Positions 1 through 55,187 of a DNA stretch of 64,000 bases are shown piece after piece. The notes under the pieces were generated by a model. The model was not told the origin of the DNA and ran no database searches. It was given only the letters and a program-made list of their open reading frames with translations. Origin of the DNA: a virus; the IMG/VR virus record IMGVR_UViG_3300036770_001978, positions 3,753-67,752 of that record. The stretch is one strand, 5' to 3'. The translations under genes were made by a program, and so were the position numbers. Positions within the stretch are counted from its first letter, which is position 1. Each line of letters begins with the position of its first letter.

Positions 1-100
1 GAACAATTCGCCCTGATTTCATTGGGCCACATAAGTCTCGCCTGCACGTTCGTGCTTGGCGTTTTGGTCGGTTGTTCTCTTTCGAAGAAAAGGACTTCAC

Positions 101-1213
101 ATGGCTACGGCAACGAAGGAACGTCGCAAGACTGGTGGCATCACATTGAGCGCCGCCGAGCTGAAGAGTGCTCTCGCCGCTGTCAGCCCGGCTGTGCCAA
201 CAAGGGCACCAAAGCCGGTGCTGACGAACGTGCGTCTGGGTGACGGGCTCGTCACCGGCACTGATCTCGAGGTGCGGATCGACGCCGCCATCGACTACCA
301 TGGCGATGCCATGCTGCTGCCGCACGGGCGGCTCATGGCGATCCTGAACGCCGCCGGTGGCGAGGAGGTGACCCTGGAGCCGAAGGGCACGTCGTGCGTC
401 GTGCGGTGCGGACACGGAACGTGGACGCTGCCCGTCGAGGACGCGGCCGAGTACCCGATCTGGGAGCCGAAGGACGCGAAGCCCGTGACGCGGCTCCCGG
501 CTGACCAGTTCGCTCGGGCGGTGCGTGGCGTGGTGTTCGCCGCCGACCAAGAGTCGAGCCGCTACGCCCTCGGGGCGGTGCTCGTGGACGTGAAGGACGG
601 CGTGGTCAACTTCGTGGCCACCGACGGCCGCCGGCTGTGCTCGTCGGAGATGGAGCACGACCTGGCCGTCGATGACACAACCACACTGGTGCCGAGCCGC
701 GTGATGCAGATCCTGGCCCGCGTCGCGGTGGCGGCCGGCGAGGACTCGGTGCAGCTAGAGGCCACGGCGAACGAGCTGCTGGCCACCATCGGCGGCACGA
801 CCGTCACGGCCCGGCTGACTGAGGGCCGCTTCCCCAGGTGGCGTGACGTGATCCCGGCAGACGGTGGCGAGCCGACCACGGTGCTGGCCACGGAACTGTT
901 GTCGGCGACCAGGGCGGCAGCCATCGTGACGAGCGAGCAGTCGAAGGGCGTGCAGTACACCTTCACGGCTGAAGGCATCCACCTGCACGGGCAGTCTGCC
1001 GAGTCCGGCGAGTCGAGCGTGACGTGCGAGATCGTGGAGGCCGGCAAGGCGTGCACGGTGAAGCTCGATCCGGTGTTCGTCCGCAAGTGGCTCTCGGGCC
1101 TGCCGGCTGACGGCGAGCCAACGGTCAGCGTCCAGGCCACGGACGCTCAGTCGGCCGTCGTGCTTCGCACGGACACGTTCACCGGCGTCATCATGCCCCT
1201 GGCCACGGAGTGA
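101..1213 (+). CDS. dnaN: DNA polymerase III beta sliding clamp
   Basis: 370 aa from the ATG after an AAGGA RBS. Clamp motifs KPVLTNV, GTDLE, SRYALGAV, VATDGRRL, EGRFPRWRDVIP and C-terminal VIMPL. Confidence 0.9.
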   Translation: MATATKERRKTGGITLSAAELKSALAAVSPAVPTRAPKPVLTNVRLGDGLVTGTDLEVRIDAAIDYHGDAMLLPHGRLMAILNAAGGEEVTLEPKGTSCVVRCGHGTWTLPVEDAAEYPIWEPKDAKPVTRLPADQFARAVRGVVFAADQESSRYALGAVLVDVKDGVVNFVATDGRRLCSSEMEHDLAVDDTTTLVPSRVMQILARVAVAAGEDSVQLEATANELLATIGGTTVTARLTEGRFPRWRDVIPADGGEPTTVLATELLSATRAAAIVTSEQSKGVQYTFTAEGIHLHGQSAESGESSVTCEIVEAGKACTVKLDPVFVRKWLSGLPADGEPTVSVQATDAQSAVVLRTDTFTGVIMPLATE

Positions 1214-1536
1214 GCGTAATGCGTCAAAACGTTGACGTTGCCAGTCTGTTCAGGCTCTGGAACGACGAGAGCATGACACGGGCTGAAATCGCACGAGAGC
1301 TCGGCGTGACGGCTGGTCAGCTGACAAGGTTGGCCAGCCGTCACGGGCTCGGCGTTCGAGGACGCAAGCACCGGGCGTTTTCAATGACTGACCCGTCGCC
1401 AGACGAGATCGAGCGGCTGAAGGCCGTGCTGAAGGAACGGCACATCCAGGAGCGGATACGTGAGGACGTGACGAACACGAACAGCAAGGTGAGCAAGTGG
1501 CGGAACGGCATCTGCAGCCCGAGAGGTGTGGCGTGA
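1210..1536 (+). CDS. HTH DNA-binding protein (GcrA-like N-terminus)
   Basis: LW..MTRAEIARELGVT..QL helix-turn-helix. GTGA overlaps on both sides. Confidence 0.6.
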   Translation: MSVMRQNVDVASLFRLWNDESMTRAEIARELGVTAGQLTRLASRHGLGVRGRKHRAFSMTDPSPDEIERLKAVLKERHIQERIREDVTNTNSKVSKWRNGICSPRGVA

Positions 1537-2312
1537 CAGACCGCGACCACTTCGCCGCTGCGGCCCTGACGGGGCTGTTGTCCGACAAGGCCAATCAGTA
1601 TCCCACTGCATTGCAGTGGGAGCAACTGCTGAAGCACGCCTACCGCTGTGCCGACGCCATGCTCCGCGCGCGGGAGCGAACCGATCATGACGCCGCGCCG
1701 GCGGCGACAGCCCCGACAGACGCCAGCCCTCTCCGCTCGGCGCAGAGCGTGACGGCTGGTATGGGCACCGGCAATCAGACTGCTCCACCATGCGTGGAGG
1801 CAGATGGCCTCTCGTCTGCGATAGCGCAGCCACCGGCCTCCAGCGATGGAAGCGGCGAGGGGCGGCCCCTAGACGACACGCGGCCCGACACAAAGGGAGA
1901 AGCGACGGGTGGGCGGGGGCGCAATACAAGTGTTACCAACGGAGACACATCAGCAAAGCCTGTTGCCGAATCTCAAGATCAGCGACAGGAGCCGGTGGCG
2001 TGGGCCGTGTTCTGCGGCGACTCTCGCTTCTGCTATGACCACTACGACGACGAGTGCGAGGCGCAGGCCATCGCGGATATGCTGGCGGGCGATGATCGCG
2101 GCGACGGTTTGTGGCATATCGTCCCGCTCTACCGCGAGCCGCAGACCTGCCCCTACGTCGTTGGCCGCACCACGCTGCACTGTTCGCTGACGCCGCTCAC
2201 GCTCACCGACGCGGAGCGGGAGGCGATCAGGTTCGCCGCCGTGTTCTACTCGCAGGGAGGGCGAGCGGCTGACGCCGCCACGCTCCGCAACCTACTGGAG
2301 AGGACAAAATGA
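1533..2312 (+). CDS. Mosaic hypothetical protein (TDRDHFAAAAL / LTDAEREAI family), copy 1
   Basis: GTG start overlaps the upstream TGA. Blockwise near-identity to 63025-63981. Confidence 0.7.
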   Translation: MTDRDHFAAAALTGLLSDKANQYPTALQWEQLLKHAYRCADAMLRARERTDHDAAPAATAPTDASPLRSAQSVTAGMGTGNQTAPPCVEADGLSSAIAQPPASSDGSGEGRPLDDTRPDTKGEATGGRGRNTSVTNGDTSAKPVAESQDQRQEPVAWAVFCGDSRFCYDHYDDECEAQAIADMLAGDDRGDGLWHIVPLYREPQTCPYVVGRTTLHCSLTPLTLTDAEREAIRFAAVFYSQGGRAADAATLRNLLERTK

Positions 2313-2587
2313 CCAGCGTCTGGCTCGTCACGAACGGCGGCAGCGGGGAGGATGGCGACGAATGGCTGCTGGACTCCATCTACGCAACGAAGGAAGGCGC
2401 AAAGGCTGGGCGCACCAAGTGGTTCAATGTGGTCGAGGAGTCTGTGCTGCGTGGCAGCATCCTCACCGACGAGGAGCGAGAGGCGATTGAGAGGGCCATC
2501 GGGCGAGAGTTGGACGCCGAGTGGTATGGCGGGCCTGAACCAGACAGGGTGGTGGCGCTTCGCGGGCTACTTGAACGGCTAGGCTGA
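2309..2587 (+). CDS. Hypothetical protein with LTDEEREAI..LLERLG C-terminal module
   Basis: ATGA coupling, GGAG RBS. Stop codon lies in the outer box of attC-like site 1. Confidence 0.75.
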   Translation: MTSVWLVTNGGSGEDGDEWLLDSIYATKEGAKAGRTKWFNVVEESVLRGSILTDEEREAIERAIGRELDAEWYGGPEPDRVVALRGLLERLG

Positions 2588-2672
2588 GAACGCCAGCGAT
2601 CTGCGGCCCGCGACCGCTGACTTACCATACCGGCAGGCGGCATCGCGGGTCCGCTGCATCGCGTGGTTCCAA
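2585..2672 (-). repeat. attC-like recombination site 1
   Basis: GAAC-GCCA-GCGAT-CTGCGG-CCCGCGA...TCGCGGG-T-CCGCTG-C-ATCGC-GTG-GTTC. Imperfect hairpin with AAC/GTT ends and two bulged bases. Confidence 0.75.
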
Positions 2673-2690
2673 AAAGCAAAGGAGACAGAC

Positions 2691-2939
2691 ATGAGTGATT
2701 TGATACCGCCGATGATGCCTGACGATCTGGACGCACTCATTCAGGCGATGGAGCGGGTGCAGCAACTAGAGGCAGAGGTGGCAAAGTTGCGACTTACCGA
2801 CGAGGAGCGGGATGCGGTGATAGCGGCGCGAAAGCACCTCTTGTGGCTCGCGCCGCCAGACTCCAATGCGCAGGACACCGTTGATGCTCTTGGTTCGCTG
2901 CTGGAGCGCTTGGCTCTCAACGTAAAGGAGTTGACATGA
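2691..2939 (+). CDS. Hypothetical protein with LTDEERDAV module
   Basis: AAGGAG RBS. Shares the C-terminal module with its neighbours. Confidence 0.7.
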   Translation: MSDLIPPMMPDDLDALIQAMERVQQLEAEVAKLRLTDEERDAVIAARKHLLWLAPPDSNAQDTVDALGSLLERLALNVKELT

Positions 2940-3229
2940 CGCCGTTTGGATTTGTCCTGTCGGTTGCCGCGCTAGTGGTGGGACTGCTGCTTGGATACTT
3001 CGCATCTTGGGCGACACCAAAGCCTGCGCCAGATGACTACGCCGACTGCCTGATTCACCCCGAGACAACGCCGCAGGTCAAGTGGGTGAAAATGACTCGG
3101 CCGACCAGGGACGCGATCATCGACATCTACGCGGCCAACATGGACGAGTGCAAGAAGTTCATGGAGGCGAACGACCGCGTTACGACTGGCGAGGCGGCGA
3201 TACTGTGGCTGATGGAAAAGGCGAAATGA
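2936..3229 (+). CDS. Hypothetical membrane-anchored protein
   Basis: AAGGAG RBS, ATGA coupling, N-terminal hydrophobic helix. Confidence 0.7.
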   Translation: MTPFGFVLSVAALVVGLLLGYFASWATPKPAPDDYADCLIHPETTPQVKWVKMTRPTRDAIIDIYAANMDECKKFMEANDRVTTGEAAILWLMEKAK

Positions 3230-3483
3230 TTCACAACACATGCCCATGCTGCGAAGTGTCACGCCCGCCGCACCGCGATGACTGCACGTTTGCGGTCGAT
3301 TGCCCGGAGGCGTGCGCGGACTTTGACTACGTTGCTAACCTGCGGCTCACCGACGAGGAGCGGCACGCCATCGCGGTCGTCCGCAACTGCGCCATGACGC
3401 GAGCCGAGCGGTTTCTAACGCAGAGCGATGCGGAGAGGGAGGCGACACTGGTGCTGTGGAGATTGCGGGAACGGCTAGGCTGA
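3226..3483 (+). CDS. Small Cys/His-containing protein with LTDEERHAI module
   Basis: ATGA coupling. CPCC..H..C motif. Ends RERLG inside attC-like site 2. Confidence 0.65.
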   Translation: MIHNTCPCCEVSRPPHRDDCTFAVDCPEACADFDYVANLRLTDEERHAIAVVRNCAMTRAERFLTQSDAEREATLVLWRLRERLG

Positions 3484-3569
3484 GAACGCCAGCGATCAGC
3501 GGCATCGAACACAGGAGCAACCATGGGAGACGAGGTAGATGAGATGTCCGCTGCATCGCGTGGTTCTGT
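3481..3569 (-). repeat. attC-like recombination site 2 (loop holds the RBS and ATG of the next gene)
   Basis: GAAC-GCCA-GCGAT-CAGCGG-CATC...GATG-T-CCGCTG-C-ATCGC-GTG-GTTCTGT. Confidence 0.8.
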
Positions 3570-4002
3570 GATCGCACCCCGCGACATCCTTGACGAAGCC
3601 CGAGACTTCCTGAAGCCGCACGGGTCGGCAGACGAGGTTGCCCGCTACCCGGTCGCTTCCCTTGTGCTGCGGCTGGCGGATGAGTTGCGTCAGACGCGAG
3701 CCGCGTTCGGCGATCTGGACGAGCAGGAAAAACTGATCGCGCAACTGGAATCACAACTGGATGGCTGCTGCAAGAAACTGTGGGTGGAGTGGGTGCCGGT
3801 TGCCGAGCAACTGCCGACACGCGATCAGGTTGTTCTCGTCGCGTGGGAAGGTTGGGAGTTGGTGACGTTGGGGCACTTCATCGACGGCGATTGGTTCGAC
3901 CCGGTGGTAGCCATTTCCGAGTACGGGCCGCCGACGCACTGGATGCCGCTGCCGATTGGGCCGCGACCGCCAGTTCCGGCCCCGCCGAGCGACAGTAAGT
4001 AG
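3523..4002 (+). CDS. DUF551-like (Eaa/Ead-type) phage protein
   Basis: WVPVAEQLP...VLVAW...PTHWMPLP motif. Confidence 0.75.
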   Translation: MGDEVDEMSAASRGSVIAPRDILDEARDFLKPHGSADEVARYPVASLVLRLADELRQTRAAFGDLDEQEKLIAQLESQLDGCCKKLWVEWVPVAEQLPTRDQVVLVAWEGWELVTLGHFIDGDWFDPVVAISEYGPPTHWMPLPIGPRPPVPAPPSDSK

Positions 4003-4004
4003 CC

Positions 4005-4094
4005 ACAGAACGACAAGGATAAGGAGCATCGCATGACTGACGAAACAACACCACAGGACGGCAAGGCGATGTCTCCTGCATCCGCTGGTTCGCT
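4005..4094 (-). repeat. attC-like recombination site 3
   Basis: ACAGAAC-GACAA-GGAT-AAGGAG-CATCGC...GCGATG-T-CTCCTG-C-ATCC-GCTG-GTTCGCT. Same bulges as sites 1 and 2, with compensatory stem changes. Confidence 0.75.
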
Positions 4095-4335
4095 GTTCCT
4101 GATTACAGTGCCACTTGGAGACGGACTGGTTGGTATCAAGTGCATTGAGGACGAGGACAAAACGCCCGGCATCCTGATGCGAGCGCTGACCAAGCCATGC
4201 GACATCGGGGCCATGTCGCCAAAAGGCAACAGCGAGAACTTTGGCGTTTTCGTCCGATGCCCGAAACTGGAGTCGGCTCAAGTGCTGCTCAAGGCGGTGC
4301 AAGAACTGTGCGACACACTGAAGGCGAAAGAGTAA
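4033..4335 (+). CDS. Hypothetical cassette protein starting inside attC-like site 3
   Basis: AAGGAG RBS at 4021-4026. Stop codon abuts site 4. Confidence 0.7.
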   Translation: MTDETTPQDGKAMSPASAGSLFLITVPLGDGLVGIKCIEDEDKTPGILMRALTKPCDIGAMSPKGNSENFGVFVRCPKLESAQVLLKAVQELCDTLKAKE

Positions 4336-4376
4336 GCGAACGCCAGCGATCAGCGGCCCGTCCGCTGCATCGCGTG
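4335..4376 (-). repeat. Truncated attC-like site 4
   Basis: AGCGAAC-GCCAGCGATCAGCGG-CCCGT-CCGCTGCATCGCGTG. Loop collapsed and right-hand GTT lost. Confidence 0.65.
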
Positions 4377-4499
4377 ACTGCACACAAACTGTCGAAAAGT
4401 GACACAAACCACCCACCCAGACGTTCGCCCCTGGTTCCATGAGGACGCGGAGCCCGGCCCGTACACCGAAGACCCGGAGGACGGTTACCCGTACGACGA

Positions 4500-4739
4500 A
4501 TGAGCGGCTGCATGATTGAGCGAGGGAGCGCTGGGGTGCCGTGCGTTGGAGGGCCGCTGGACGGAGCGCTCCGGCCTTTCTCGTCGCATGACAGGCTGTG
4601 CGTCTCCATGATCGGCCCGCTTGGCGTTCGGCACCAGTGGTACGAACTGAGGACATGGCGGAAGAAGTCTGGCGAGTACAAGGACAGGTGGGTGTATCTG
4701 GGCTGGGGCGGCACGCACGGCCCGAAGGGGGAACCATGA
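4500..4739 (+). CDS. Hypothetical protein
   Basis: CVGGPLDG motif common in small phage proteins. ATGA coupling to the next gene. Confidence 0.55.
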   Translation: MSGCMIERGSAGVPCVGGPLDGALRPFSSHDRLCVSMIGPLGVRHQWYELRTWRKKSGEYKDRWVYLGWGGTHGPKGEP

Positions 4740-4879
4740 GCGGATGGCTGATAGCCCTGACTGGCTTGATCTACGCCTACGTCTCCGCCGAGCAGTTCTG
4801 GCGTGGCAATCCCGGCATGGGGGTCGCCTACTTGGGGTACGCATTCTCCAATGTGGGCCTGTACCTGCTGGCGAAGTAG
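4736..4879 (+). CDS. Small two-TM membrane protein (47 aa)
   Basis: MSGWLIALTGLIYAYVSAEQFWRGNPGMGVAYLGYAFSNVGLYLLAK. Confidence 0.65.
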   Translation: MSGWLIALTGLIYAYVSAEQFWRGNPGMGVAYLGYAFSNVGLYLLAK

Positions 4880-4880
4880 A

Positions 4881-4893
4881 CGGCCATAAATCC
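4881..4893 (+). promoter_or_regulatory. Candidate late promoter motif (CGGMCATAAATCC)
   Basis: Near-copies at 23942, 44344 and 47146, each upstream of a virion or late gene block. Confidence 0.45.
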
Positions 4894-4907
4894 CGTGAGG
4901 GATTTCT

Positions 4908-6749
4908 ATGGCAACACCCGCTGCGCTCGCTGCCGCCCGTCTGGGGCGGGCCTCTAAGGTCGCGGAGTTGGCAAGCGAGGCGAGGGCGTTCACGCCTGCC
5001 GGGTATCTTCCTGCGCCACCAGTGCCGCGATTTATTTCCAGGGCAGAGGAGGCTGCTGCAAGACTTCCGGCCTCCATCAAGGCAGAGTCCGTGCGAAATG
5101 CGCTCATCAAGGGAGGGGCAAAGCCTGCCGAACTTGACTACGCGGGCCTCGACGGGTTCGTTGCTGACCGCGCCGGGACGAAGGTGTCAGCCGCCGATGT
5201 CCTGTCGCACTTGCGCAGCGAGGGTCCGCTGGAAAGGATTGTGCGAGTCGATCAGCGACGGGGAACAAAAGCGGAGATCGCCGCGCGGAAAATGTCGGGG
5301 GAACCTCCTGAGACATCTTCGATGCGAGAGCCGTTCAACGAGCAGCAGGCATATCCTCGCACGATGTATCACAAACACACAGAGCAGGGGGTCGGCGGCG
5401 ATTATTCCGGATACCGCGAGGTGCTGTTTGGCGACAACCGCAATGACGCCGGTCGTCCCGGAAGAGTGCTGGACGGGCTTGTTGTTCCACACAGGATGAT
5501 GCGTGCTGGCCCAATAGACGCTCACAACTCCACGTACTGGATGCGGTATCACAGCAACCCAGACGCTATTGCAGTCCAAAACGTACAGAGCGATGCCGGT
5601 CAGAATTGGTCGCGCCGCGAAGCCGACCTTCGTCGTGTCGCAAAAAGGCTGGGCGTTCAGCCATATAGCGACGAAATGCCTGCGGCCATAGAGGCGGAGG
5701 CACGGCGACTTTTGTCCGACCTCGCTCGCGCACCAGACGACGAGTACGACGCGCTGTACGACCAGTTGGAAGAAACCCAGATGGCGCAACAGCATCTCAG
5801 CAGGCTGGAGGCAGGAGACAGAGCGCAGGGAGACAAGGTTCGCCGTCTGCAAGAAGATTGGCACCGCGTTTATCTCGACAACGAGTCCATGCGCTGGGCA
5901 GGTCTGGCGGACATGCGCGACAGCGCGGCAGAAGAGGCCGCAGGCGAGGCGCACGACGCAGCGGCCCGAATCGCGGCGTTGTCAGGCAATGTTCACGCGC
6001 CAGAAAGCCCGCTGGTGCAAGAGGATCGCTGGAAGGATTTTCTGGCTCGGCAGATCGTCCTACAAGCGGCCGCAGAAGGGAAGCCAATCACACTGCCGAC
6101 TGGGGCTAACGCCAATCTTGTTGAGGGAATGCCCATTCAAGCGGCGACCGTGTTCTACGAAAAAGACTTCCCTAGCCGCATCGAGAAAGTCCTCAAGGAG
6201 TTTGACCCACAAGGTGGTGGGGCGTCGTCGCGGTATGTCGGCCAAGCCGGAGACATGCGACTTTATGGACCCGCGCCGCGAGACGGAGGCTCCGCGAGCG
6301 AGGCAAGCGCGCTGAACGTTCCGGCTCTTGGCAGCGTGGCGCGGGTTGTGCCGTACACGAACGAATTGGACGGGCTCGTGAGGCAGATTGTGGCTGACGC
6401 TGGGCCAGACGACGCAAGGCTTCTCTCGCTTGTCCGATTTGAGGGCAAGTCAGGAGACGGCAGGCGGCTCGCGATTGACAAGATGCTGGACACGTTATCC
6501 CGCAGCCCTGAGATTGTGGCCCCAGACCAGCAGCCGCACATTTCGCGGCTGTATGGAGTGCTTGAGCGAGCGCGATCGCATCCTGTGCCCGTAGTGGGAG
6601 GAGAGCGTCCGGGAACCCACATCACCATGACACCAGTGGCGCGCCGAAACATCCTGGAGCGCGGAATGCCAATCATGTCGGTGATCCCTGCGGCAGCAAT
6701 CGGCGCATCGCAGGGCGGCGTCCTCGACGGCTTGAAGGAGACACGGTGA
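4908..6749 (+). CDS. Large polyvalent-protein-like / internal virion-like protein
   Basis: 613 aa. YREVL, NVQSD, W....R..L.AAAEG, FYEKD.P and ITMTP...GMP pattern recalled from phage polyvalent and ejected proteins. Confidence 0.55.
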   Translation: MATPAALAAARLGRASKVAELASEARAFTPAGYLPAPPVPRFISRAEEAAARLPASIKAESVRNALIKGGAKPAELDYAGLDGFVADRAGTKVSAADVLSHLRSEGPLERIVRVDQRRGTKAEIAARKMSGEPPETSSMREPFNEQQAYPRTMYHKHTEQGVGGDYSGYREVLFGDNRNDAGRPGRVLDGLVVPHRMMRAGPIDAHNSTYWMRYHSNPDAIAVQNVQSDAGQNWSRREADLRRVAKRLGVQPYSDEMPAAIEAEARRLLSDLARAPDDEYDALYDQLEETQMAQQHLSRLEAGDRAQGDKVRRLQEDWHRVYLDNESMRWAGLADMRDSAAEEAAGEAHDAAARIAALSGNVHAPESPLVQEDRWKDFLARQIVLQAAAEGKPITLPTGANANLVEGMPIQAATVFYEKDFPSRIEKVLKEFDPQGGGASSRYVGQAGDMRLYGPAPRDGGSASEASALNVPALGSVARVVPYTNELDGLVRQIVADAGPDDARLLSLVRFEGKSGDGRRLAIDKMLDTLSRSPEIVAPDQQPHISRLYGVLERARSHPVPVVGGERPGTHITMTPVARRNILERGMPIMSVIPAAAIGASQGGVLDGLKETR

Positions 6750-6750
6750 T

Positions 6751-8220
6751 ATGGCTGGACTGAACGAGGCGGGCATCGACGAGATCTTCGCCTCACGCCC
6801 CAAGCCCAACCCTGCCGCCCAGCCGGGTGCGTTGGGAATGGAGCGAGCCGATGCCATTCGCGGGGAGATTTACCGGCGGCACCGCATCGCCCCCGACACG
6901 CCGCTTGCGGACGCGATGAAGCAGATCGAGCAACGGTCGCAGATGCGGTCGGCTCTCGGCGTGGACGGCGGACAGCCATCGGCATGGGCGAACCCGGAGG
7001 AGCGGGCGAGGGCCAGGGAGGAGTACGCCCGGCAGGGCAGGACTCCGGCGGAGGTGAACAAGCGGTGGGAGGAGTCCACGCACCTGCTCGACCCCCGCAC
7101 CTACCAGTACATGCAGAACTTCGGCCGCGACCTGGACTTCTTGCAGGCTGAATCGCTCAAGAACGAGAGGGCGGCTCGCCTCCAGGATGCGCAAATCCCG
7201 GAGGCTGACCCGACTGGCATGGACATCTGGTCGGCAGCACGCGGAGTGCAGGCTGGAATGCTGGACGAAGGTGCAAAGCGAGCGATTCAGTATTACGACC
7301 AGGGCGGCGGACAGCGTTTGTCTGGTGCTGGTGGAGCAAACCCAGTGCGTGCGCCAAACGGCTACGCACGGTTTGACACTACGCCCAACGCGATCATGGA
7401 CAACATGACCAATCCGGACGTGCCGCTTGGGAACTACCTGACATTCTCGGAGACGGCACCCAACTTTCTTCGCCTGCAAGGAAGCGGGGAGACGGGAACG
7501 GCTGGCGAGTCGTGGGATAGGGCCAACGCCCAGCGACTTGCGGAGAATCGGTATCGCTTGTCCTCGCCGCACGCGATTCTCGACCTCCCATTTGGATCCA
7601 CCAACCAAGAAATCTCCCAGCGGATTGCTGCCTTGCAGAACGAAGTCAGGGCGTCAAGCATCCCGATGGCGGACGAGCGGTGGCAGAGGACGTTGGGCTG
7701 GACTCCTCCAGGCGTTCTTAGTGATGCAGGCGACTTTGCCATCAGCATGGTCGATCCGACTGTCGTAATGCCTGCGGCCAGGGGCGCTGGTGCGCTCACG
7801 AACGCCGCGCGGGCGGCGATGAAGGGCGCCAGAATTGCTGGATCGGGGTGGATCGCACCTGCCGTCCGCTCTGCGGCCGGGTCAGCAGCCAAAGATTTTG
7901 CCGTTGATATGGGCGTCGAGCAGGGCGTTGGGGCTGGTGTGCAAACCTCTATGGGCGGCGTGTTTGGCAGGTCGGACGGCCAGTATTGGCGTGGCGGCGG
8001 GAAGCCGGGCGTGGACTTTGACTACAAGACCGACGAGCAGGTGGCGGAGGCTCGCCGTGCGGGCGACCAACTCCATGCCCGACTGAAGGACGACGACGGA
8101 GTATCGAGAGCGGACAGCGAGGCATACAACCGGCTTGTCGCTACGGGCCTCCTCCCACAGCCCGGCAGTGACCTCCACCCGCGTCCGCAGTGGAGGATGA
8201 ACTCGTCCAACAAGCAGTAG
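6751..8220 (+). CDS. Hypothetical Ala/Gly-rich protein, possibly virion-internal
   Basis: 489 aa ORF with AAGGAG RBS, co-oriented with the head genes. Confidence 0.65.
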   Translation: MAGLNEAGIDEIFASRPKPNPAAQPGALGMERADAIRGEIYRRHRIAPDTPLADAMKQIEQRSQMRSALGVDGGQPSAWANPEERARAREEYARQGRTPAEVNKRWEESTHLLDPRTYQYMQNFGRDLDFLQAESLKNERAARLQDAQIPEADPTGMDIWSAARGVQAGMLDEGAKRAIQYYDQGGGQRLSGAGGANPVRAPNGYARFDTTPNAIMDNMTNPDVPLGNYLTFSETAPNFLRLQGSGETGTAGESWDRANAQRLAENRYRLSSPHAILDLPFGSTNQEISQRIAALQNEVRASSIPMADERWQRTLGWTPPGVLSDAGDFAISMVDPTVVMPAARGAGALTNAARAAMKGARIAGSGWIAPAVRSAAGSAAKDFAVDMGVEQGVGAGVQTSMGGVFGRSDGQYWRGGGKPGVDFDYKTDEQVAEARRAGDQLHARLKDDDGVSRADSEAYNRLVATGLLPQPGSDLHPRPQWRMNSSNKQ

Positions 8221-9342: not shown

Positions 9343-10461
9343 ATGGCGTCAAGCGTTGACTGGGCTCGTTCGATTGGCACGACTCTGACCCTTCATCTGA
9401 AGGAAGAGGAGCAGACGACCTTCCGCAAGTTCAAGGTCTTCGCGGCCCTCCAGGCGAACGGCAACGTCGCCATGAATCAGGGTGGTCGCGGTTTCGACTG
9501 GCAGGTTCGCTATCGCAACATCCCCGTGTCCACGTACACGGGCGAGTCGCCGCGAGTCTTCGCACGCCACGCGCTCTGGCAGCGAGCCAACCTCCCGTAT
9601 CGGGGCTATTCGGTCACCGATCAGATCAGCAAGCGGGAGATGCTGGAGAATCGCGGTCAGGCCCAACTCATCGACGTGGCCGGGAAGATGACGAACCGGC
9701 TCACGGAGTCGATGCAGGAGCATCTCGCGAAGGAGGTGTTCATCGACGGGTACGCCAGCGGCAACGAGAATCGGTGGCATGGGCTTGAGTCCATGTTCTC
9801 CGTGAACGGGACGATCAACGTCGCCACTGGTGCCCAGCGGACGGCGAACGCCGCTGACCCCTTCGGCTTCCCGAACGACGAGTACGCCGGTCTGAAGACT
9901 GGTCTGGGTCAGTACGCTGGCTCGCAGTTGGCGACCGGCTCGTGGCCCCGAGTTCCGGCCGATCCGGAGTACGACTTCTGGTCGCCCATCGTGTGTAACT
10001 ACACGAGCACGGCCTTCGGTGGTGCGACGGCGACCTGGAAGGATCAGTGCATCGAGGCGATCCGAGAGTCGGTCAACCACGCGAAGCGGAACGACACTCG
10101 CGAGAACCAGATCGACATGATCCTCCTGGATCGGTCGATGTACATCCAGTTCCTCAACCGACTGGACAGCCGCGAGCGGGCCATTGTGTCGAAGACCAAC
10201 GGCCTGAAGTCTTACGGCTTCGGGGATGTGGTCGAAATCGACGGCATCGAAACCGCGAGCGACTACGCCGTGCCGCCGGGTGTGGGCTATGCCCTCTCTA
10301 TCGGCAACATGGAGATGAAGGTGATGACCGGCAACCTGCTGGAAGCGGAGGGACCGTTCTACAACGAGGAACTTTCCGCGTACCGCTACGCAGTCAGTGT
10401 CTTGGCAAACATCAAGATGAAAAGTCCGCGCAACTTTGTGAAGTTCGCGGCCCTCGCCTGA
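9343..10461 (+). CDS. Major capsid protein
   Basis: 372 aa. GG..FDWQV.Y, I.K.E.L.N.G...LID and GL.S pattern of HK97-fold MCPs. Position fits. Confidence 0.8.
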   Translation: MASSVDWARSIGTTLTLHLKEEEQTTFRKFKVFAALQANGNVAMNQGGRGFDWQVRYRNIPVSTYTGESPRVFARHALWQRANLPYRGYSVTDQISKREMLENRGQAQLIDVAGKMTNRLTESMQEHLAKEVFIDGYASGNENRWHGLESMFSVNGTINVATGAQRTANAADPFGFPNDEYAGLKTGLGQYAGSQLATGSWPRVPADPEYDFWSPIVCNYTSTAFGGATATWKDQCIEAIRESVNHAKRNDTRENQIDMILLDRSMYIQFLNRLDSRERAIVSKTNGLKSYGFGDVVEIDGIETASDYAVPPGVGYALSIGNMEMKVMTGNLLEAEGPFYNEELSAYRYAVSVLANIKMKSPRNFVKFAALA

Positions 10462-10495
10462 TCCTCAACAGCCACCAGAAGGAGAGTCCTCGCAG

Positions 10496-11032
10496 ATGAG
10501 TACGCTGACTGCTGATCCCGGATTTGCTCGCGGCCAGACGCTTGGCGTCACCGTGACGCTGTACGAGGCCGAGAACGGCGACGGTTCGACGGTTGTGGGC
10601 GTCCGCAAGGTGTTCCGCGATGAAGACCCGAAGACCGGCGCTCTCAAGAGCAACCGGGAGGTCGAGTGCATCGCCGTGAAGAACACGAGCGGCTCGGCCC
10701 TCCTGCCGGGTTCGGTCGCCAAGTTCAAGGACGCTGCCATCCTGTCCGAAGTGGACGGTCTGGCGACGACCTCGACGGCCCTCATGGGCATCGTGGACGA
10801 GTACCTCCCCGCTGCTGGCGTTGCCAACAACGAGGTGTTCTGGCTCGTGGTTCGTGGCCCCTCGACGGTGACGAAGACCTCGACCAGCGTTTCGGCTGGC
10901 GCCTCCTACGGCCTGTCGGCTACGGCTGGCTCGGCGGCGGCTCAGTCCACGAACCCGCTGCTCGGCTACGCCATCGAGACGAGTGCCACGACCTCCGGTC
11001 GGATCCTGGTTCGCACGAACGCTGGCTTCTGA
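10496..11032 (+). CDS. Putative capsid decoration/cement protein
   Basis: Follows the MCP. VKNTSG..L.PG, GIVDEYLP and FWLVV.GP beta-rich pattern. Confidence 0.6.
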   Translation: MSTLTADPGFARGQTLGVTVTLYEAENGDGSTVVGVRKVFRDEDPKTGALKSNREVECIAVKNTSGSALLPGSVAKFKDAAILSEVDGLATTSTALMGIVDEYLPAAGVANNEVFWLVVRGPSTVTKTSTSVSAGASYGLSATAGSAAAQSTNPLLGYAIETSATTSGRILVRTNAGF

Positions 11033-12297: not shown

Positions 12298-13819
12298 GAT
12301 GCTGGTGCTAGGCGGTAACCGCTCCGGCAAGTCGCTCTGCACCTTCGTGGAGGACGCCCGTGCTGTCTGCGGGAAAGACCCGCACGGGAAGTATCCCGAG
12401 AAGGACGGCATCCTCGCCATCGTCGGCAAGGACTGGAAGCACATCGGCCTTGTGGTCTACCCCATGCTGTTCATGGCTGGGGCGTTCAAGATCATCAAGG
12501 ACGAGAAGACGGGCGAGTGGCGTGCCTACAACCCGGCGACCGACTCTGCCCGTGAGCGTGAGGCCAAGCCCGCCCCGCCACTGATCCCGCCTCGCATGGT
12601 GGCGAAGAAGTCGTGGATTCTGAAGTCCGCTCGCTACATCCAGTCCTGCACGCTGACCAACGGCTGGCAAATCTACTTCTTCTCGTCGGAAGGAGAGCCC
12701 CCACAGGGCTGGCAGGCAAACAGGGTCCACATCGACGAAGACGTAAACAACGGCGATGCGTGGGTTCCGGAAATGCAGGCCCGCCTCTCTGACCGTCGCG
12801 GTGTATTTGCGTGGTCGGCTATGCCGCACAGCAAGAACGACTCGCTCCAGTCGCTTGCGGAGCGGGCCGACAAGTTGGCGGAGGAGGGCGTCGAGAATCC
12901 GACCATCGTCAAGTTCCAACTCAGATTCCTGGACAACCCGCACATCCCGGACGACGAGAAGCGGAAGCGTATCGAAGGCTGGGCGGCGCTGGGCGACGAC
13001 GTGCTGCGGATGCGCAGTGAGGGCGAGTTCATCAGCGACTCGATCCTCTGCTACCCGACGTTCGCCATGCACGTTCACGGCTACGACCGGACGGAACTGG
13101 AGAACCTGACCGTCCCAAACGATTGGTGCCGGTACGCCGCCATCGACCCTGGTCACGCCGTCACGTCGGTGCTATTCGCCGCCGTGCCGCCCGACGAGTC
13201 GATGATGCTGATCTACGACCAACTCTACATCCGCAACTGCAACGCCATCGTCTTTGGCGAGAAGATGCGGGAGAAGTGTCAGGGCCAGAACTTCTACGCC
13301 TTCATCATCGACATGCACGGCGGTCGGCTCCGCGAGATCGGCTCCGGTCGCCTGCCGGTGGAACTGTACACCGAGCAACTCAAGGCGCAGGGGGTGGCCA
13401 GCGAGACGACGGGGCACAGTTTTCTGGCGGGGTGCGACGACGTGCAGGCCCGTATGTCGGCCGTCCGGAACTACCTCCACATCCGCCCTGACGGCAGGCC
13501 CATGCTGCGGGTGCTGCGGAACGCCGTCCCCGACCTGGAGCGGGAACTCAAGCGGTACAAGCACAAGACCCAGTTGGTTGGCGGCACCTACGTCGTGACG
13601 GACCAGCCGAACACACGGGGGGAAGTCCACGCCTGCCAGTGCTTGGAGTACCTCTGTGCCTATCGACCTCGCTGGCACAAGCCTAAAGTCGATGTCGGTC
13701 CCGATCCCTGGTACGTCGATTGGGTGCGGAAACGCAAGAAGCGTCTCGCAGCCGAGTCCGACGAGTTCATCTTCTTAGGCCCACAGTCAGGAGCGAAGTA
13801 TGGAAGCCGAATCCTTTAG
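12113..13819 (+). CDS. terL: Terminase large subunit
   Basis: PTPKQ, Walker A GGNRSGKS, Walker B VHIDE, DNPHI, RNase H-like AIDPG. Confidence 0.92.
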   Translation: MSKSRRKPPQISPLPSVKRLGSFQQSELKEMQAELASRRIEALRLYQPTPKQEEVHQSRSSEMLVLGGNRSGKSLCTFVEDARAVCGKDPHGKYPEKDGILAIVGKDWKHIGLVVYPMLFMAGAFKIIKDEKTGEWRAYNPATDSAREREAKPAPPLIPPRMVAKKSWILKSARYIQSCTLTNGWQIYFFSSEGEPPQGWQANRVHIDEDVNNGDAWVPEMQARLSDRRGVFAWSAMPHSKNDSLQSLAERADKLAEEGVENPTIVKFQLRFLDNPHIPDDEKRKRIEGWAALGDDVLRMRSEGEFISDSILCYPTFAMHVHGYDRTELENLTVPNDWCRYAAIDPGHAVTSVLFAAVPPDESMMLIYDQLYIRNCNAIVFGEKMREKCQGQNFYAFIIDMHGGRLREIGSGRLPVELYTEQLKAQGVASETTGHSFLAGCDDVQARMSAVRNYLHIRPDGRPMLRVLRNAVPDLERELKRYKHKTQLVGGTYVVTDQPNTRGEVHACQCLEYLCAYRPRWHKPKVDVGPDPWYVDWVRKRKKRLAAESDEFIFLGPQSGAKYGSRIL

Positions 13820-14139
13820 CCCGCCGCAGGTCCGCGTTGGGGACAGCGTGTACTGGTATCACGACCCGCTGAACTGCAACGAGCCGACGCTCGGCTGGAT
13901 CGTGGAGCGGCCCGGCGTCATGACGGTCAGCGTCCTCACCTTCTCCCCGAACACGGGCTTCCTGGAGCGTCCGTCCGTGCGGCACAAGGACGATCCCGGC
14001 TTGCAGGAGCACTCCGAGTGGCGGCAGTGGGGCTGCTGGGACTTCACGCCGCAGTCTGCACAGATGCGAAAGATGGATGGCCTCGTGGCTCAGATCGCCA
14101 GCCTGACGGAACAGGTTGCCCTTGCAAGGAAGCAAAACG

Positions 14140-14159
<20 letters not shown>
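13800..14159 (+). CDS. Hypothetical protein
   Basis: AGGAG RBS. Lies between terL and portal. Confidence 0.7.
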
Positions 14160-16164
<2,005 letters not shown>

Positions 16165-35000: not shown

Positions 35001-35566
35001 CGGCACGGCAGATCGCCATGCAGACGCATCCCGGCATCCGCATGATCGCGGAGGCGGCGTTTGGCAAAGACCTGTTCACCAACCGCCCGCTCTCCGAAGC
35101 GACCTCCTCGCTCGACGCCATCGCTCGTGCCGTGAGCGGCAACCCGTACGCTGACGTGCCAACCGTCATCGAGAAGCCCGTCGAGTCCCTGCCGTTCGTT
35201 GGCCGTCCGCTGTACGTCGCCCGCTCGCTGCTCGATGATCGCGGAGGTCAGTCGCTCTCGCATCGCGTCGGCAAGACCACCTTGAATGCCCTGTCCGGAA
35301 TCAAGATCCGTGACGTGGCCCAGCAAGACGCTCTCGCGGATGCCGTGCGGCAGATCGAGGAGTCCATCGACCCGTACACCCGTGAGTTCAAACAGACCTA
35401 CATCCCCGAGCATCTCCAGCCGGGCGTGCCGCAGTGGGCGTTGCAGCGGATGGCCGTCTCCCGAGCGCTTGGTCGCGAACGTCGCGAGGCTCGGAAGAAG
35501 GTCGGCGAGAAGAAGAAGCCCAAGAAGCGGAAGTCGGACACCAGTGGCATCTCCCTATTTGAGTAG
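32087..35566 (+). CDS. Large ejection/DNA-transfer protein (1159 aa)
   Basis: GLA.EL.TDPL N-terminus. A.....H.DYS.LS..EK..L...FPWYSY pattern of large podophage ejected proteins. Confidence 0.65.
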   Translation: MASMFPDGLFPQERKRSRGYIPLLDDALLADEPVEEDAVTPQERASVLSEIGAVTGGTLSRVGDALAAPGDYLRGALAGKTGERVTGRELNRMAGLAGPEDNWFNFAGGLATELVTDPLSMLSGASRALTPAGKAAAKLAGPVGSLLDTAPTALTRKAISTGMADDLLPAVARRTKKQLEATGRTLSTFDPATIGRPLYGTRTARRAGTLDDLIKYADDPKAAEESARQLLGDAQLAQIRNQPLAKSFGLGLPLGDPLVVGDWLGKGFGDTYADVLDSVGQAYRWSPLGRGMAAGFDARVGGKIDAEEQITNIANFQARKVGGGAATAEHTLQLARLQQAHPEVFGDETGNRALGRYVEGPNARTPADVAYVESRPQLKAYADWWMTNRERMLSESRQMGLNAAPLTDAYGIEYLPRRAEASLEMEARSNRKVGDALSAFTTDALRRTDAMQVPGGRDTIIDLSRDTQVSGGKRLLTNDEDAAAYIRDKLNAMVSPGQPQVGISQARHIARILNKLPDNVVQKAPLFGQHPTEMIGSYMRNKGESLGTARTLYDSLATFAVNEPYNTVSGGRHISLQTALQRLGLKTYDDALDDIFEVLPDGTSRTIPQQQGAAAQMRERLANLLGKDADEINLNQFSIPEEHINRLTRAKDLYSTGEASGAFLKYLDSYTQAWRGSILAWPSRAVRDLYSGALSNWLEGALDLDSVRAAKALVMEGPDSEKFRRTLASIPRYANDDGLAQFYADLSSTGLVSSGSVSDLSASVTGQRALDNIIGSDPISMSSIGRELGKGWNRQDFFNWRSKLNPLAEQTNPLLRAGERLNSLSDGVNRLTGYLSLLKQGYDPMAAAAAMKRAHVDYSSLSGMEKSLLKAVFPWYSYQSRIFREVLRQLAERPGGRYGQLIRATEAVQDEGEDTYIPSGLRSQFAFPIPEVFGGVPAPGTQTYLTDIDAPGFDQINMIETPGTIGGMASGTARQIAMQTHPGIRMIAEAAFGKDLFTNRPLSEATSSLDAIARAVSGNPYADVPTVIEKPVESLPFVGRPLYVARSLLDDRGGQSLSHRVGKTTLNALSGIKIRDVAQQDALADAVRQIEESIDPYTREFKQTYIPEHLQPGVPQWALQRMAVSRALGRERREARKKVGEKKKPKKRKSDTSGISLFE

Positions 35567-36379
35567 CGCCGGCACGCACGGGATGTCCCTTCGCACCTGC
35601 GACCAGTCGATGTAGCACCGCTCGGCAAGTCCAGGCGTCTTGTGACCGAGATGCAGCCGACCCTTGCCGGGATTCTCCATCTCGATGTGGGTGGCCCCGC
35701 TGCGGCGTAGCCACTTCGATGAGCCCGAGAACTTGATGGAGCGCAGGTACTTCCGCATCCGCCGCCGACCTGAGTTCCTCGACATCACCCACCCCAGCAC
35801 GCGGCCATCGGGTGACCGCGCCAGCATCTCCTGGACGGCCAGCAGGCAGGGCTGGCTCATGATCTTGACGTGCGGCTCGCCGGTCTTGTGCTGCGACCAG
35901 CGGACGGTTCCGGCGTCAAGGTCGAAGTCATCTTGCCGCATCTCCCACAAGTCCCCCTGCCTCGCACCCGTTTCGTACCCCAGCAGCATCCAGCACCGCA
36001 GGAACAGGCCGACCGTCACCCGCTTCCGCCGCACCTCTTTGGTGAAGCCGAACGTCCCCTTGACAGCCGTACAGCACTGTTCTATAGTCCACGCCCGAGT
36101 CGGACGCCGGGCGACTTTGATCTTGACGATTCCGCGTGGCGGTCGATCAACTGCTTCGGTTTCGTAGGCCCATTTCCAGATGCCCACGAGAATCGCTCGC
36201 TCGGTCGCTGCGGTAATCGAAGCCACCTCGACGATTCGCTTTTGCAGATACGTGTTGATGGCATCGACTGACATGGTGCGACAGGCCGAGCAGACAGCAC
36301 GGACATTTCGGGCGTAGTCAGGACTGACGGATCGGGAGCGTAGGTATCGCTCCACCAAAACATGGAGGTTCTTGCACAT
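35555..36379 (-). CDS. Tyrosine recombinase (XerC/integrase family)
   Basis: YETGAR, QHKTG, WLRRSGAT, LGH and ERCY. The R-K-(H)xxR-H-Y set is present with W in place of the first His. Confidence 0.8.
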   Translation of the reverse strand: MCKNLHVLVERYLRSRSVSPDYARNVRAVCSACRTMSVDAINTYLQKRIVEVASITAATERAILVGIWKWAYETEAVDRPPRGIVKIKVARRPTRAWTIEQCCTAVKGTFGFTKEVRRKRVTVGLFLRCWMLLGYETGARQGDLWEMRQDDFDLDAGTVRWSQHKTGEPHVKIMSQPCLLAVQEMLARSPDGRVLGWVMSRNSGRRRMRKYLRSIKFSGSSKWLRRSGATHIEMENPGKGRLHLGHKTPGLAERCYIDWSQVRRDIPCVPALLK

Positions 36380-36487
36380 GGTTGCCCCACTTGATGTGAG
36401 GGGTGGATTTTCTGGATGCGAAACCGACTTGCAACTCGGCGGCGCATCCGGAAAGTCTGGCACCCCTCAGATGGAGCCCCTACAAGC

Positions 36488-44909: not shown

Positions 44910-45326
44910 ATGGCACGGACGGTCGCAATCTGGGCGGGCCTGCTGATTGGCATTGGGGCCATGACGGCCACCGTCCTGCCCCGCAAGCCCGTCGTGGCTC
45001 CGGTGGTGCCGCAGCCCGCTGGCGTCCTGGCTGGCGTCAGTGCGGCCGACGCCGCGATCCTGCGAGAGTTCCATGCGGCGATGGCGGACATCGTGGTGCG
45101 GGACGGTGCGGCCAAGCAGCCGGTCTGCAAGACGCTGTTCGACCTGCGGGCACGGTACAGGAACGCCCTGTCGCTGGCCTTTGAGAACACGGGGATGGTG
45201 GGCCGGTACGCCGGTCTGGGGCAGCGGCTCGACGAATACCTGCTCCTGGCTGTGGGCGACAAGGACTTGCCGCTCACGCCTGAACTCAGGCAGTCCGCAT
45301 CTCGGGCGTTCGCAGCGATCAAATAG
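44910..45326 (+). CDS. Membrane-anchored/secreted hypothetical protein
   Basis: N-terminal TM helix followed by a Pro linker. Confidence 0.65.
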   Translation: MARTVAIWAGLLIGIGAMTATVLPRKPVVAPVVPQPAGVLAGVSAADAAILREFHAAMADIVVRDGAAKQPVCKTLFDLRARYRNALSLAFENTGMVGRYAGLGQRLDEYLLLAVGDKDLPLTPELRQSASRAFAAIK

Positions 45327-45333
45327 GTGGGGC

Positions 45334-46275
45334 ATGACGGAGTTCTTCGCCTCACCAGAGGACATCGTTCGGGCGTACAACGACGGGCTCATGGGCTCGT
45401 ACTGCGACCCCGATGCCACCGCCCGCCTGCTGCGGTCGCTGCCCATGCCGTTGTTCGGAGGCACGCTGGCGGGTAGCGGTGCGGGCAAACTGTCCCTCGC
45501 CTTCAAGGCAGTCGTCCACTGGGAGACAACGACCGGCCGCAAGCCCTACGACGAGACGCAAACGACGGGCGATTGTGTCAGCCATGCCGTGCGGGGCGGG
45601 TCTGATGTGGCTCGGGCCAACGACCCTGACCTGCACTCGACGGAGGACTGGGTAGACCGCACGGCGACGGAGCCGCTGTACGGCGCTCGGGGTCATGGCG
45701 GTCAGGGGGCGACCTGCTCCCGCATCGTGGAGTGGGCGCACAAGACCGGCGGGCTGATGCTCCGCAAGAAGTACGACTCGCTCGGGATTGACCTCACGGA
45801 ATACAACGCATCGGTGGGCATGCGGTGGGGCTCGCGTGGTGTGCCGTCTGAGGTGACCAGCGAAGCGAAGAAGCACCACATCGGGACGATCAGTCTGGTG
45901 ACGACGTGGCAGCAGGCACGGGACGCCATCGCCAATGGGTACGGGCTGGTGTGCTGCTCGGACGTTGGGTTCGCCGGGATGAAGCGGAACTCGGAGGGCA
46001 TGATCCGCCCGTCCGGGACATGGCACCACGCGATGCAGTGGCACGCGGCCGACGCCACCCGCCCCAATGACTGCCGCTTCTGCGTGCAGAACTCGTGGGG
46101 CTGGAACGCTCACACCGGCCCGAAGGTGCATGACCAGCCGGAAGGGTCGTTCTGGATCGACCAGCAGACGGCCCAGCGGATGATCGCACAAGGGGGAACG
46201 TATGCAGTATCGAACGTGGTGGGCTTTCCTAAGCGGACGCTCAAAGACTGGGGCGCACGGGAGATTCTCGGATGA
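45334..46275 (+). CDS. Papain-family (C1-like) cysteine peptidase
   Basis: QTTGDCVSHA (Gln/Cys), HAM (His), VQNSWG (Asn), GSFWI. Confidence 0.85.
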   Translation: MTEFFASPEDIVRAYNDGLMGSYCDPDATARLLRSLPMPLFGGTLAGSGAGKLSLAFKAVVHWETTTGRKPYDETQTTGDCVSHAVRGGSDVARANDPDLHSTEDWVDRTATEPLYGARGHGGQGATCSRIVEWAHKTGGLMLRKKYDSLGIDLTEYNASVGMRWGSRGVPSEVTSEAKKHHIGTISLVTTWQQARDAIANGYGLVCCSDVGFAGMKRNSEGMIRPSGTWHHAMQWHAADATRPNDCRFCVQNSWGWNAHTGPKVHDQPEGSFWIDQQTAQRMIAQGGTYAVSNVVGFPKRTLKDWGAREILG

Positions 46276-48914: not shown

Positions 48915-49439
48915 ATGCACCTGACAGCAGAGCAGCAGCGGCTTGCCGAGCAGGCGATGGAGATCGTGCCGAAGGCGATTGTGGCCTTCCGGTGCCGGTA
49001 TCCGTCGCTCCGGCGGCAGGTGGCTGCGATAGATGCCACGAGCGTTGCCTACCTTGCCATCTGCAAGGCGGCGGTCACGTATGACCCGGCGCAGTCGAAG
49101 GTCACGACCTACTTCTCGATGGCGATTCGCAACGCACTGCTCAAGGAGATCGACAAGAACCGCCGCATGCGGTACGACTCGCCGGATCGGGTGCCGATGG
49201 AGTTGGCGGAGGCACTGTCGGCCAGCAAGCAGCACGGGTTCTCGACCCGCATCCAGACGGCCATCGCACGGCTCCCCGCCAAGTCCCGCAGACTGATCCA
49301 CTTGCGGTTCTTTCGTGGACTCAGCCTGCGGGAGATTGGCGAGCAGTCCGGGTGCGACCCGCGAACTATCCAGCGGCGACTCGCCGTCGCTTTGGACTGT
49401 CTGGGAACGCTTTTGCAAAGCGAGCCGCTTGGGCCTTGA
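48915..49439 (+). CDS. Sigma-70-family sigma factor (regions 2 and 4 only)
   Basis: AICKAA.TYDP...K.TTY....IRN (region 2). LP...R.LI.LRF..GLSLREIG (region 4 HTH). Confidence 0.85.
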   Translation: MHLTAEQQRLAEQAMEIVPKAIVAFRCRYPSLRRQVAAIDATSVAYLAICKAAVTYDPAQSKVTTYFSMAIRNALLKEIDKNRRMRYDSPDRVPMELAEALSASKQHGFSTRIQTAIARLPAKSRRLIHLRFFRGLSLREIGEQSGCDPRTIQRRLAVALDCLGTLLQSEPLGP

Positions 49440-50106: not shown

Positions 50107-50117
50107 GTGCGTGCCTC

Positions 50118-50330
50118 CTAGAGCAAGTAGAAGAAGACGAAGACCACGACGCAGAGCCAGCCGAACGGTCCCATGTAGATGGGCTCGGTCGGATCGAGGC
50201 TGGTGCGAACCATCAACGCCAGGATCGCAAGCCGGAACACCCACTCGATAGGCCCGGCGTCGAGGCCGAGCATGTTGCGGAACCGTTCGCGGACGGTGCT
50301 GTGGCTGTACTTGTAGTCCAAGAAATCCAT
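50118..50330 (-). CDS. Small membrane protein
   Basis: 70 aa, two hydrophobic segments. Confidence 0.55.
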   Translation of the reverse strand: MDFLDYKYSHSTVRERFRNMLGLDAGPIEWVFRLAILALMVRTSLDPTEPIYMGPFGWLCVVVFVFFYLL

Positions 50331-54719: not shown

Positions 54720-54796
54720 GACAGGAATGCTCCTGAGTAGGGGACCAATGGGACGGGGGACGGGGCGGCACGATGCTACCCCGTCCCCCTACAAAC

Positions 54797-55160: not shown

Positions 55161-55187
55161 AACACTCTCCTTAGTGGATGGGATGGG

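Follow-up and report, generated by a model that had tools for sequence, protein, structure and literature searches.

We analyzed a 64,000-nucleotide stretch of viral DNA (bases 3753–67752 of the 67,752-base IMG/VR virus record IMGVR_UViG_3300036770_001978; hereafter the window) in which a set of hairpins between small genes had been taken, in an original prediction made from the letters of the sequence, for integron-type recombination sites. We put at about 0.82 the probability that positions 2588–4380 are an integrase-less cluster of integron-type attC sites (CALIN) carried by a phage and bounding at least two clean gene cassettes. That the hairpins behave as attC-type sites is supported by their AAC/GTT ends, by complementary cassette ends, by bulged stems that covary, and by a variable loop, and the sites of the window belong to the attC family of chromosomal integrons that adjoin IntI genes. 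Four sites lie within 1.8 kb, and no integron integrase accompanies them. Searched over its full 67,752 bases with TIGR02249, the record gave no match at E ≤ 0.001, in line with the original statement that no intI lies nearby. Ten further large phage contigs with arrays, 8 of which are at least 90% complete, likewise yielded no IntI, and a tblastn search with the IntI of locus L211 against the loci gathered matched only genome contigs. Hence the array of the window is a CALIN.

The arms of these hairpins are far commoner in the window than chance would allow: the 19-nt left arm, with up to three mismatches, occurs three times against an expectation of 0.15, and the 19-nt right arm four times against 0.06, a count that none of 100 shuffles reaches. 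All four of the hairpins originally claimed are there, imperfect and co-oriented, at positions within 3–4 bases of those first given (Table 1), and each sits at or shortly after a stop codon, as had also been claimed (TGA immediately before GAAC at sites 1 and 2, TAGccaca before it at site 3, and TAAgc at site 4). DNA folding returns the expected hairpin for all four, the + strand fold being slightly more stable than the − strand fold each time; site 1 folds at −26 kcal/mol (z −3.05). Site 3 represents a subfamily (GGATAAGGAG / CTCCTGCATCC) whose diverged stem is preserved through compensatory changes. The loops of sites 2 and 3 each contain a good Shine-Dalgarno sequence as well as the ATG of the gene that follows, so that the 3′ arm is translated, that of site 2 being read as SAASRGS. 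The AAC/GTT ends proposed for every site are present in sites 1–3; in site 4 the GTT is absent. The 3′ arm of site 4 terminates in GTGACTG, not GTGGTTC, and since the terminal GTTC is missing its R box is unable to pair; this is probably a decayed terminal site. A blastn search for distant matches between window positions 1–8000 and GenBank phages gave none.

Two circular cassettes had been delimited from these sites, and both fit a crossover between the second A and the C of AAC. The ends of cassette B, GTTCTGTG / CACAGAAC, are complementary over a run of 5, and those of cassette C, GTTCGCT / AGCGAAC, over a run of 4; cassette C moreover has a 94% identical copy in locus L095, in another downstream context, where the two sequences diverge right after GAACG. 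The predicted pairing of boxes across each gene therefore stands for two of the three intervals. Between sites 1 and 2 it does not (run of 1), and because its ends are unpaired, unit A is not a clean single cassette.

Table 1. Hairpins, cassettes, and adjoining gene of the array (window coordinates)
Feature	Positions	Strand	Content
Gene directly upstream of site 1	2309–2587	+	3′ half plus left arm (2462–2610) matches a cassette of the L249 array
attC-type site 1	2588–2669	+	44-nt loop forming a stem extension (cccgcga...tcgcggg); + strand is bottom-strand-like
Unit A, sites 1–2	2591–3486	+	Three small open reading frames (ORFs): 2691–2939, 2936–3229, 3226–3483
attC-type site 2	3484–3566	+	45-nt loop with AGGAG and ATG at 3523
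Cassette B	3487–4010	+	Site 2 plus DUF551 gene 3523–4002 (E 3.7e-07)
attC-type site 3	4008–4091	+	46-nt loop with AAGGAG and ATG at 4033
Cassette C	4011–4340	+	Site 3 plus gene 4033–4335
Site 4, short form	4338–4380	+	5-nt loop; 3′ arm without terminal GTTC

A Covarying Hairpin Family and Its Paired Cassette Ends

The hairpin family extends well beyond this record. More than 119 IMG/VR stretches contain the exact left arm, more than 120 contain a right-arm 15-mer, and a looser structural scan of the loci that we fetched yields 394 good sites in 155 loci, with sites on both strands in just four of these. Arrays reach 12 sites in the fetched part, and the array-bearing phage genomes differ in size (47–122 kb). 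Arm pairs matched strictly show only two loop classes, of 5–7 nt and 42–47 nt; the looser scan adds 34 sites (of the 394) with loops of 11–16 nt and three with loops of 32–35 nt. Long loops are of a few conserved kinds: some extend the stem, and others carry AGGAG and an ATG and read MTDEVDEMSAASRGS... into the downstream frame.

We examined covariation over 291 distinct sites in which both arms are 19 nt long. The upper stem is 98%–100% paired, with 10–58 double-sided changes at most pairs and none at l19–r1 or l13–r8, and a single unpaired C on the 3′ arm is 95% conserved. There is also a spacer, in which five bases after AAC stand opposite four on the other arm; its pairs l6–l10 are 68%–85% paired, with 0–11 double-sided changes apart from 53 at l10–r11. 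Two bulged bases had been predicted, and only one of them survives this analysis, as the conserved C; the rest is the poorly paired five-against-four spacer. Conservation is 95%–97% for AAC and 98%–99% for GTT. AAC is preceded by G (82%) or T, and GTT is followed by C (78%) or A; typical boxes read TGAGAAC, ACAGAAC, or GCATAAC. Within a site, the outermost bases of the two arms (first of the left, last of the right) do not covary. The extrahelical base, unpaired spacer, and variable terminal structure expected of attC are all present, with one bulge.

Pairing of the outermost bases is found across genes. In an integron cassette, the RYYYAAC at one end is related to the GTTRRRY at the other. 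We compared the bases that follow GTT(C/A) of one site with those that precede (G/T)AAC of the next, measuring complementarity from the junction. A complementary run of at least 4 is seen across the gene in 77% of 235 neighboring pairs; such a run is found in 17% of 393 comparisons made within a site and in 16.5% of 5,000 random pairs. Removal of identical segments leaves such a run in 161 of 211 pairs, the commonest run being 5. For the flank upstream of the first site of an array set against the flank downstream of its last, the rate is no better than random (5 of 52 arrays). Pairing across the gene is the signature of integron cassettes, as integrated circular cassettes with an AAC/GTT crossover produce it. 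The 235 inter-site segments fall into 186 DNA clusters, and near-identical sites therefore flank very diverse genes.

The orientation of the genes is the reverse of what is usual. On the attC bottom strand, AAC lies in the 5′ R′ box and is cut between A and C, and the extrahelical bases sit near L′′ on the 3′ arm (PMC5027507). The + strand of the window, which is the coding strand, has the same layout, its 5′ arms bearing AAC and its 3′ arms the bulge. Across the family, a test of the strand of the longest open frame (127 segments on the same strand, 81 on the opposite) is noisy in GC-rich DNA, and in its place we used the positions of stop codons and of loop ATGs, each with controls. A frame of at least 40 codons ends between −12 and +3 of the 5′ arm at 274 of 308 sites on the hairpin strand; the opposite strand gives 81 such sites and random positions 42, again out of 308. 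An ATG in the loop opens at least 60 codons at 138 of 187 long-loop sites, versus 61 of 187 on the opposite strand. Together with the bottom-strand layout on the coding strand, these stops at the 5′ arm sustain the original claim that the attC sites are inverted relative to the genes. The canonical arrangement, an ORF co-directional with the attC top strand and followed by its attC, is not what phage-type cassettes show. It is supported instead that a phage-type cassette consists of a hairpin and then a gene on the bottom-like strand, and since the gene lies on that strand, the hairpin heads it.

The cargo is varied. Among 150 cassette ORFs searched against Pfam, 21 match DUF551, two Dam, one a C5 methylase, and one Mom; PHROGs adds methyltransferase and Mom-like families, and most of the 150 have no match to any named family.

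Sites beside Chromosomal Integron Integrases

A scan of one genome per species with the exact left arm gave 15 matches, four of them with the full hairpin; the 11 lone left-arm matches have no full hairpin and were set aside as chance. The four hairpin-bearing records are labeled as a Planctomycetaceae metagenome-assembled genome (MAG), a Pirellulales MAG, an unclassified MAG, and a Cyanobium assembly, two of the four thus being labeled as Planctomycetota MAGs. A TIGR02249 search of these genomes found IntI above the curated cut-off of 265 bits in three.

In two contigs the hairpins adjoin the integrase gene. On the first (G001:C92), the TIGR02249 match scores 443.7 bits at 1074–2015 (−) within an intI at 1047–2180 (− strand), and the end of an array lies 230 nt past the intI stop, with hairpins at 112–195 and 487–535 whose arms are identical to those of the window at 19/19 and 18/19 positions. 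On the second (G004:C39), the match scores 457.3 bits at 10050–10982 (+), and the array that follows intI runs to the contig end, with six − strand hairpins at 13073–15721, one of them an exact short form. On the other side of intI, the two contigs carry genes for ABC transporters, LytR, OEP, HlyD, radical SAM, rhodanese, and ROK proteins, which are chromosomal in type. The link extends to cassette sequence, as the L249 array matches window positions 2462–2610 at 93% identity over 149 nt. In both integrase contigs (loci L211 and L249), the strand opposite the hairpin strand, which is the attC top-like one, is co-oriented with intI, in agreement with the orientation assigned to the phage sites. 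The Pirellulales-labeled MAG (G002) has another two IntI genes, together with about 20 related attC sites; a noisy test, which points the same way, places the longest open frame of its host-type cassettes on the opposite strand in 8 of 10.

Some further observations concern these genomes. The host-type sites of G002 (contigs L233, L234, L236, L237, and L240) share the phage stem and have another loop of about 44 nt (ctcgcgacc...atcgcgagt); on several contigs they stand 300–1200 bp apart, and their ends pair across cassettes. Locus L253 (G004:C13) has two hairpins, at 890–1282 and 6528–6689, about 5 kb from a short IntI-like fragment (a 119-amino-acid frame with 68.7 bits, below the cut-off) that may be an intI remnant beside a CALIN. 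No attI-like sequence common to the regions downstream of the four intI genes was apparent by eye.

The presence of one hairpin family beside TIGR02249-passing integrases in two bacterial contigs supports, by context, the suggestion in the original prediction that a host IntI is used, and it is presumably such an enzyme that serves the phage array. As single-stranded DNA, each site folds on an AAC/GTT base into a covarying stem of 11 bp with one bulged C and an unpaired spacer, closed by a terminal loop of either 5–7 nt or about 45 nt. During infection or lysogeny, a host IntI would cleave AAC between its A and C on the bottom-like (coding) strand, and circles made of a hairpin and its downstream gene could then be excised or inserted. 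The hairpin loop commonly provides the ribosome-binding site together with the start codon and some 15 initial codons of the gene, and the cargo consists of accessory genes of the phage, among them genes for DUF551 proteins, DNA methyltransferases, and Mom-like proteins as well as many unknowns.

Evidence for Cassette Exchange and Competing Explanations

If cassettes move between arrays, homology between related phages should stop at the crossover point. We found the same cassette in different arrays with homology stopping at GAAC, either at both ends or at the right-hand one, in clusters 65, 166, 25, and 94, the last being cassette C of the window compared with L095. In clusters 52 and 120 the left break falls at GTTC of the upstream site; exchange is therefore not strictly one-sided. 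By our count, made by eye, the hairpin type is kept upstream and differs downstream in 11 clusters, shows the reverse in four, and differs on both sides in five. A search for close relatives with a 613-amino-acid protein found one locus, ending at a contig end, and a search with the clamp protein found 57 loci, none of which matches the window beyond position 4400 at the DNA level. In the clamp relatives L256–L283, the clamp gene is 84%–94% identical at the DNA level, yet the arrays are entirely different, with from zero to at least five sites, and diverge completely right after the conserved block equivalent to window positions 1390–1536.

Several results weigh against the reading of the array as a CALIN that exchanges cassettes. 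Rfam at gathering thresholds gave no match in the window, the fold z-scores of single sites are modest (−0.73 for site 2), and the R-box consensus RYYYAAC / GTTRRRY is not found beyond the AAC and GTT themselves. Within the array, the unit from site 1 to site 2 (unit A) contains three ORFs and its ends fail to pair, and site 4 lacks its GTT. Breakpoints are also not confined to one arm, as shown by the GTTC breaks of clusters 52 and 120, and in five clusters both hairpin types differ. Assignment to a host comes from MAG labels, and one of the integrase-bearing contigs is filed under a Cyanobium assembly. Finally, no recombination event was seen. The stretch is present in four metagenome runs (X1–X4), all from one study and one perhaps from the source sample, and the contigs of these runs break at every hairpin in window positions 1500–5600. 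The joints have short sides of 20–32 nt, or of 50 nt in three runs at the 4338–4733 joint, and at the hairpin joints examined (e.g., 2300 to 4338 and 3565 to 4009) the short side falls inside the generic arm, so the joints give no evidence for excision or for an empty site. Two alleles of positions 3740–3966 coexist in this material.

The alternative that survives best, which we nonetheless consider improbable, holds that the hairpins are conserved intergenic modules between which genes are shuffled by the phage's own Exo/Erf homologous recombination in co-infection, without any integron integrase, in the manner of the early promoter and stem-loop (PeSL) modules of other phages. Much here is compatible with such shuffling: genes for an exonuclease VIII-like nuclease and for an Erf-like annealing protein are present in the record, arms and loop together offer 43–83 bp of near-identical sequence, breakpoints occur on both arms, the metagenome contigs break at hairpins, with a contig depth summed over hairpin bins that is about 10–25 times that of the backbone in run X2, and PeSL-mediated shuffling has been published (PMC2839356, PMC4122927). 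However, homologous exchange leaves unexplained both the complementary variable bases at gene ends and the linkage of the sites to chromosomal IntI, and clusters 65, 166, and 25 break where hairpins of different subfamilies have in common a 4-nt GAAC, too short a homology for annealing. Nor do the hairpins have promoter-like or terminator-like matches. A simple scan of positions 1200–5200, for promoters of the sigma-70 type only, found no promoter-like site and two terminator-like sites, neither at a hairpin; the early promoter and terminator-like stem-loop that define each PeSL repeat are not seen there.

We regard it as quite unlikely that the sites are recombined by the phage's own tyrosine recombinase (35555–36463, − strand) or serine recombinase (49366–50244, − strand). 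Both genes are present, and the short-form site does resemble two inverted arms around a 5–7 bp spacer, as in a classical core site. The 45-nt loops and the pairing of ends across genes are, however, unlike a double-stranded core site. The tyrosine recombinase, which the original prediction had offered as an alternative to a host IntI, is not supported in that role: it has no TIGR02249 match and a Pfam score of only 28.7 bits, and among 10 array-bearing phage contigs, in which this enzyme alone was sought, a close homologue (65% identity) occurs in one, distant ones (24%–29%) in four, and none in five, four of these five being at least 92% complete.

Slightly less probable again is an action at the RNA level only, in which the hairpins would process or stabilize transcripts or serve as translational operators that hide the ribosome-binding site, mobility being incidental. 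The hairpins do lie in the transcribed sense of the genes, and because 138 of 187 long loops hold the start of the next gene, folding would affect translation; an RNA role alongside a DNA role is thus possible. As the whole explanation, an RNA role would leave the complementary ends, the breaks at AAC, and the linkage to IntI unaccounted for, and no T-run follows the hairpin stems. REP/RAYT-type and IS200/IS605-type elements were considered and dropped, as there is one hairpin, not two, between genes, and the sites are linked to IntI.

Within the reading of the array as a CALIN, a further proposal is tentative and, on balance, doubtful: the phages and the chromosomal integrons of planctomycete-like hosts may share one cassette pool, and the attC of the reversed phage cassette may have been recruited as a portable translation-initiation head (a ribosome-binding site, an ATG, and a shared N-terminal peptide) behind which ORFs are swapped at GTT as well as at AAC. 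If this were true, these arrays would reveal how an attC and a coding sequence come to be joined, which bears on the open question of cassette origin, and the DNA methyltransferases and Mom-like proteins, anti-restriction-looking as they are, would share an integron-type recombination platform.

Elsewhere, the record encodes a beta clamp, a helicase, a RusA-like resolvase, and SSB. A C-terminal module (LTDEEREAI ... LLERLG), seen at window positions 2202–2227, 2462–2487, 2793–2818, 3346–3371, and 63871–63896, is common to five small genes; together with the left arm, it matches a cassette of the integrase-linked L249 array at 93% identity. A lone 19-mer resembling the right arm, with two mismatches, lies at 46023–46041 (− strand) within the ORF at 45040–46275; its best left-arm partner matches at only 9 of 19 positions, and it is either chance or a remnant. 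A second repeat family (core CAGACTCCGCAGCGG) has at least seven copies at 54781–61623, between genes of the leftward arm, two of the copies lying inside an identical 37-mer. The two ends of the window (1521–2331 and 63013–64000) have common blocks at 95%–97% identity, the offsets of which vary from 61,492 to 61,741; with such changing offsets, these are two diverged copies of one mosaic gene region rather than an exact terminal repeat.

Relation to Known Systems

Integrons are known mainly as bacterial platforms. Phage CALINs have been reported recently in small numbers (PMC9892861), and here a single attC family joins IntI-bearing chromosomal integrons with many environmental phages, which suggests that integron recombination is a routine source of accessory-gene turnover for the phages of this host group. 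The reversed design alters the expression of cassettes, in that the phage's own transcription, not the integron promoter Pc, would drive the genes, and reversed arrays offer a concrete system for testing how strands are chosen, how cassettes arise, and how phage and host exchange them. Our literature searches, from which the supplements of PMC9892861 and PMC8352920 were absent, found no paper on this hairpin family, on reversed phage cassettes, or on start codons in attC loops, and PMC9892861 was the one paper on integrons in phages that they turned up. Apparently new, in that they did not turn up in those searches, are the reversed design, the start codons in attC loops, the spread of one attC family over many phage contigs, and its sharing with integrase-linked chromosomal arrays.

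The PeSL modules of T4-type phages (PMC2839356, PMC4122927) resemble the present arrays in being repeated intergenic modules among small accessory genes, in hyperplastic regions that are shuffled module by module. They differ in using homologous recombination and in carrying a promoter, whereas the hairpins described here have complementary cassette ends, linkage to IntI, and no promoter-like match that we could find.

Among individual integron sites, attCaadA7 and VCR (PMC5027507) resemble ours in that a single strand folds, AAC is conserved, a base near L′′ is extrahelical, the central spacer is unpaired, and the terminal structure varies. Those sites have two or three bulges, unlike the one found here, and the RYYY and RRRY of the boxes are not conserved in our family. 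A further difference is that the arm sequence is here almost invariant and the loop is a translation initiation region.

The integrase-linked arrays L211 and L249 resemble the "inverted integron-integrase group" (PMC4889954), with the array on the 3′ side of intI and the attC top-like strand co-oriented with intI, and homogeneity of sites within a family has its counterpart in the attC families of Planctomycetes (PMC8352920). Unlike those chromosomal integrons (PMC4889954, PMC8352920), the window has neither intI nor attI, and its phage-type cassettes are reversed.

The nearest relatives are the phage CALINs already described (PMC9892861): 17 of them were found among 21 phages by means of attC models, with cassettes oriented as is typical of bacterial arrays, and some of the phage attC sites were recombined by IntI1. 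The arrays of that study and ours have in common attC sites without intI, DNA methyltransferases among the cargo, and the idea of cassette exchange between phages and bacteria. Ours differ in consisting of one homogeneous attC family, present in more than 119 environmental phage stretches, and in having their genes on the bottom-like strand, with start codons inside the attC loop.

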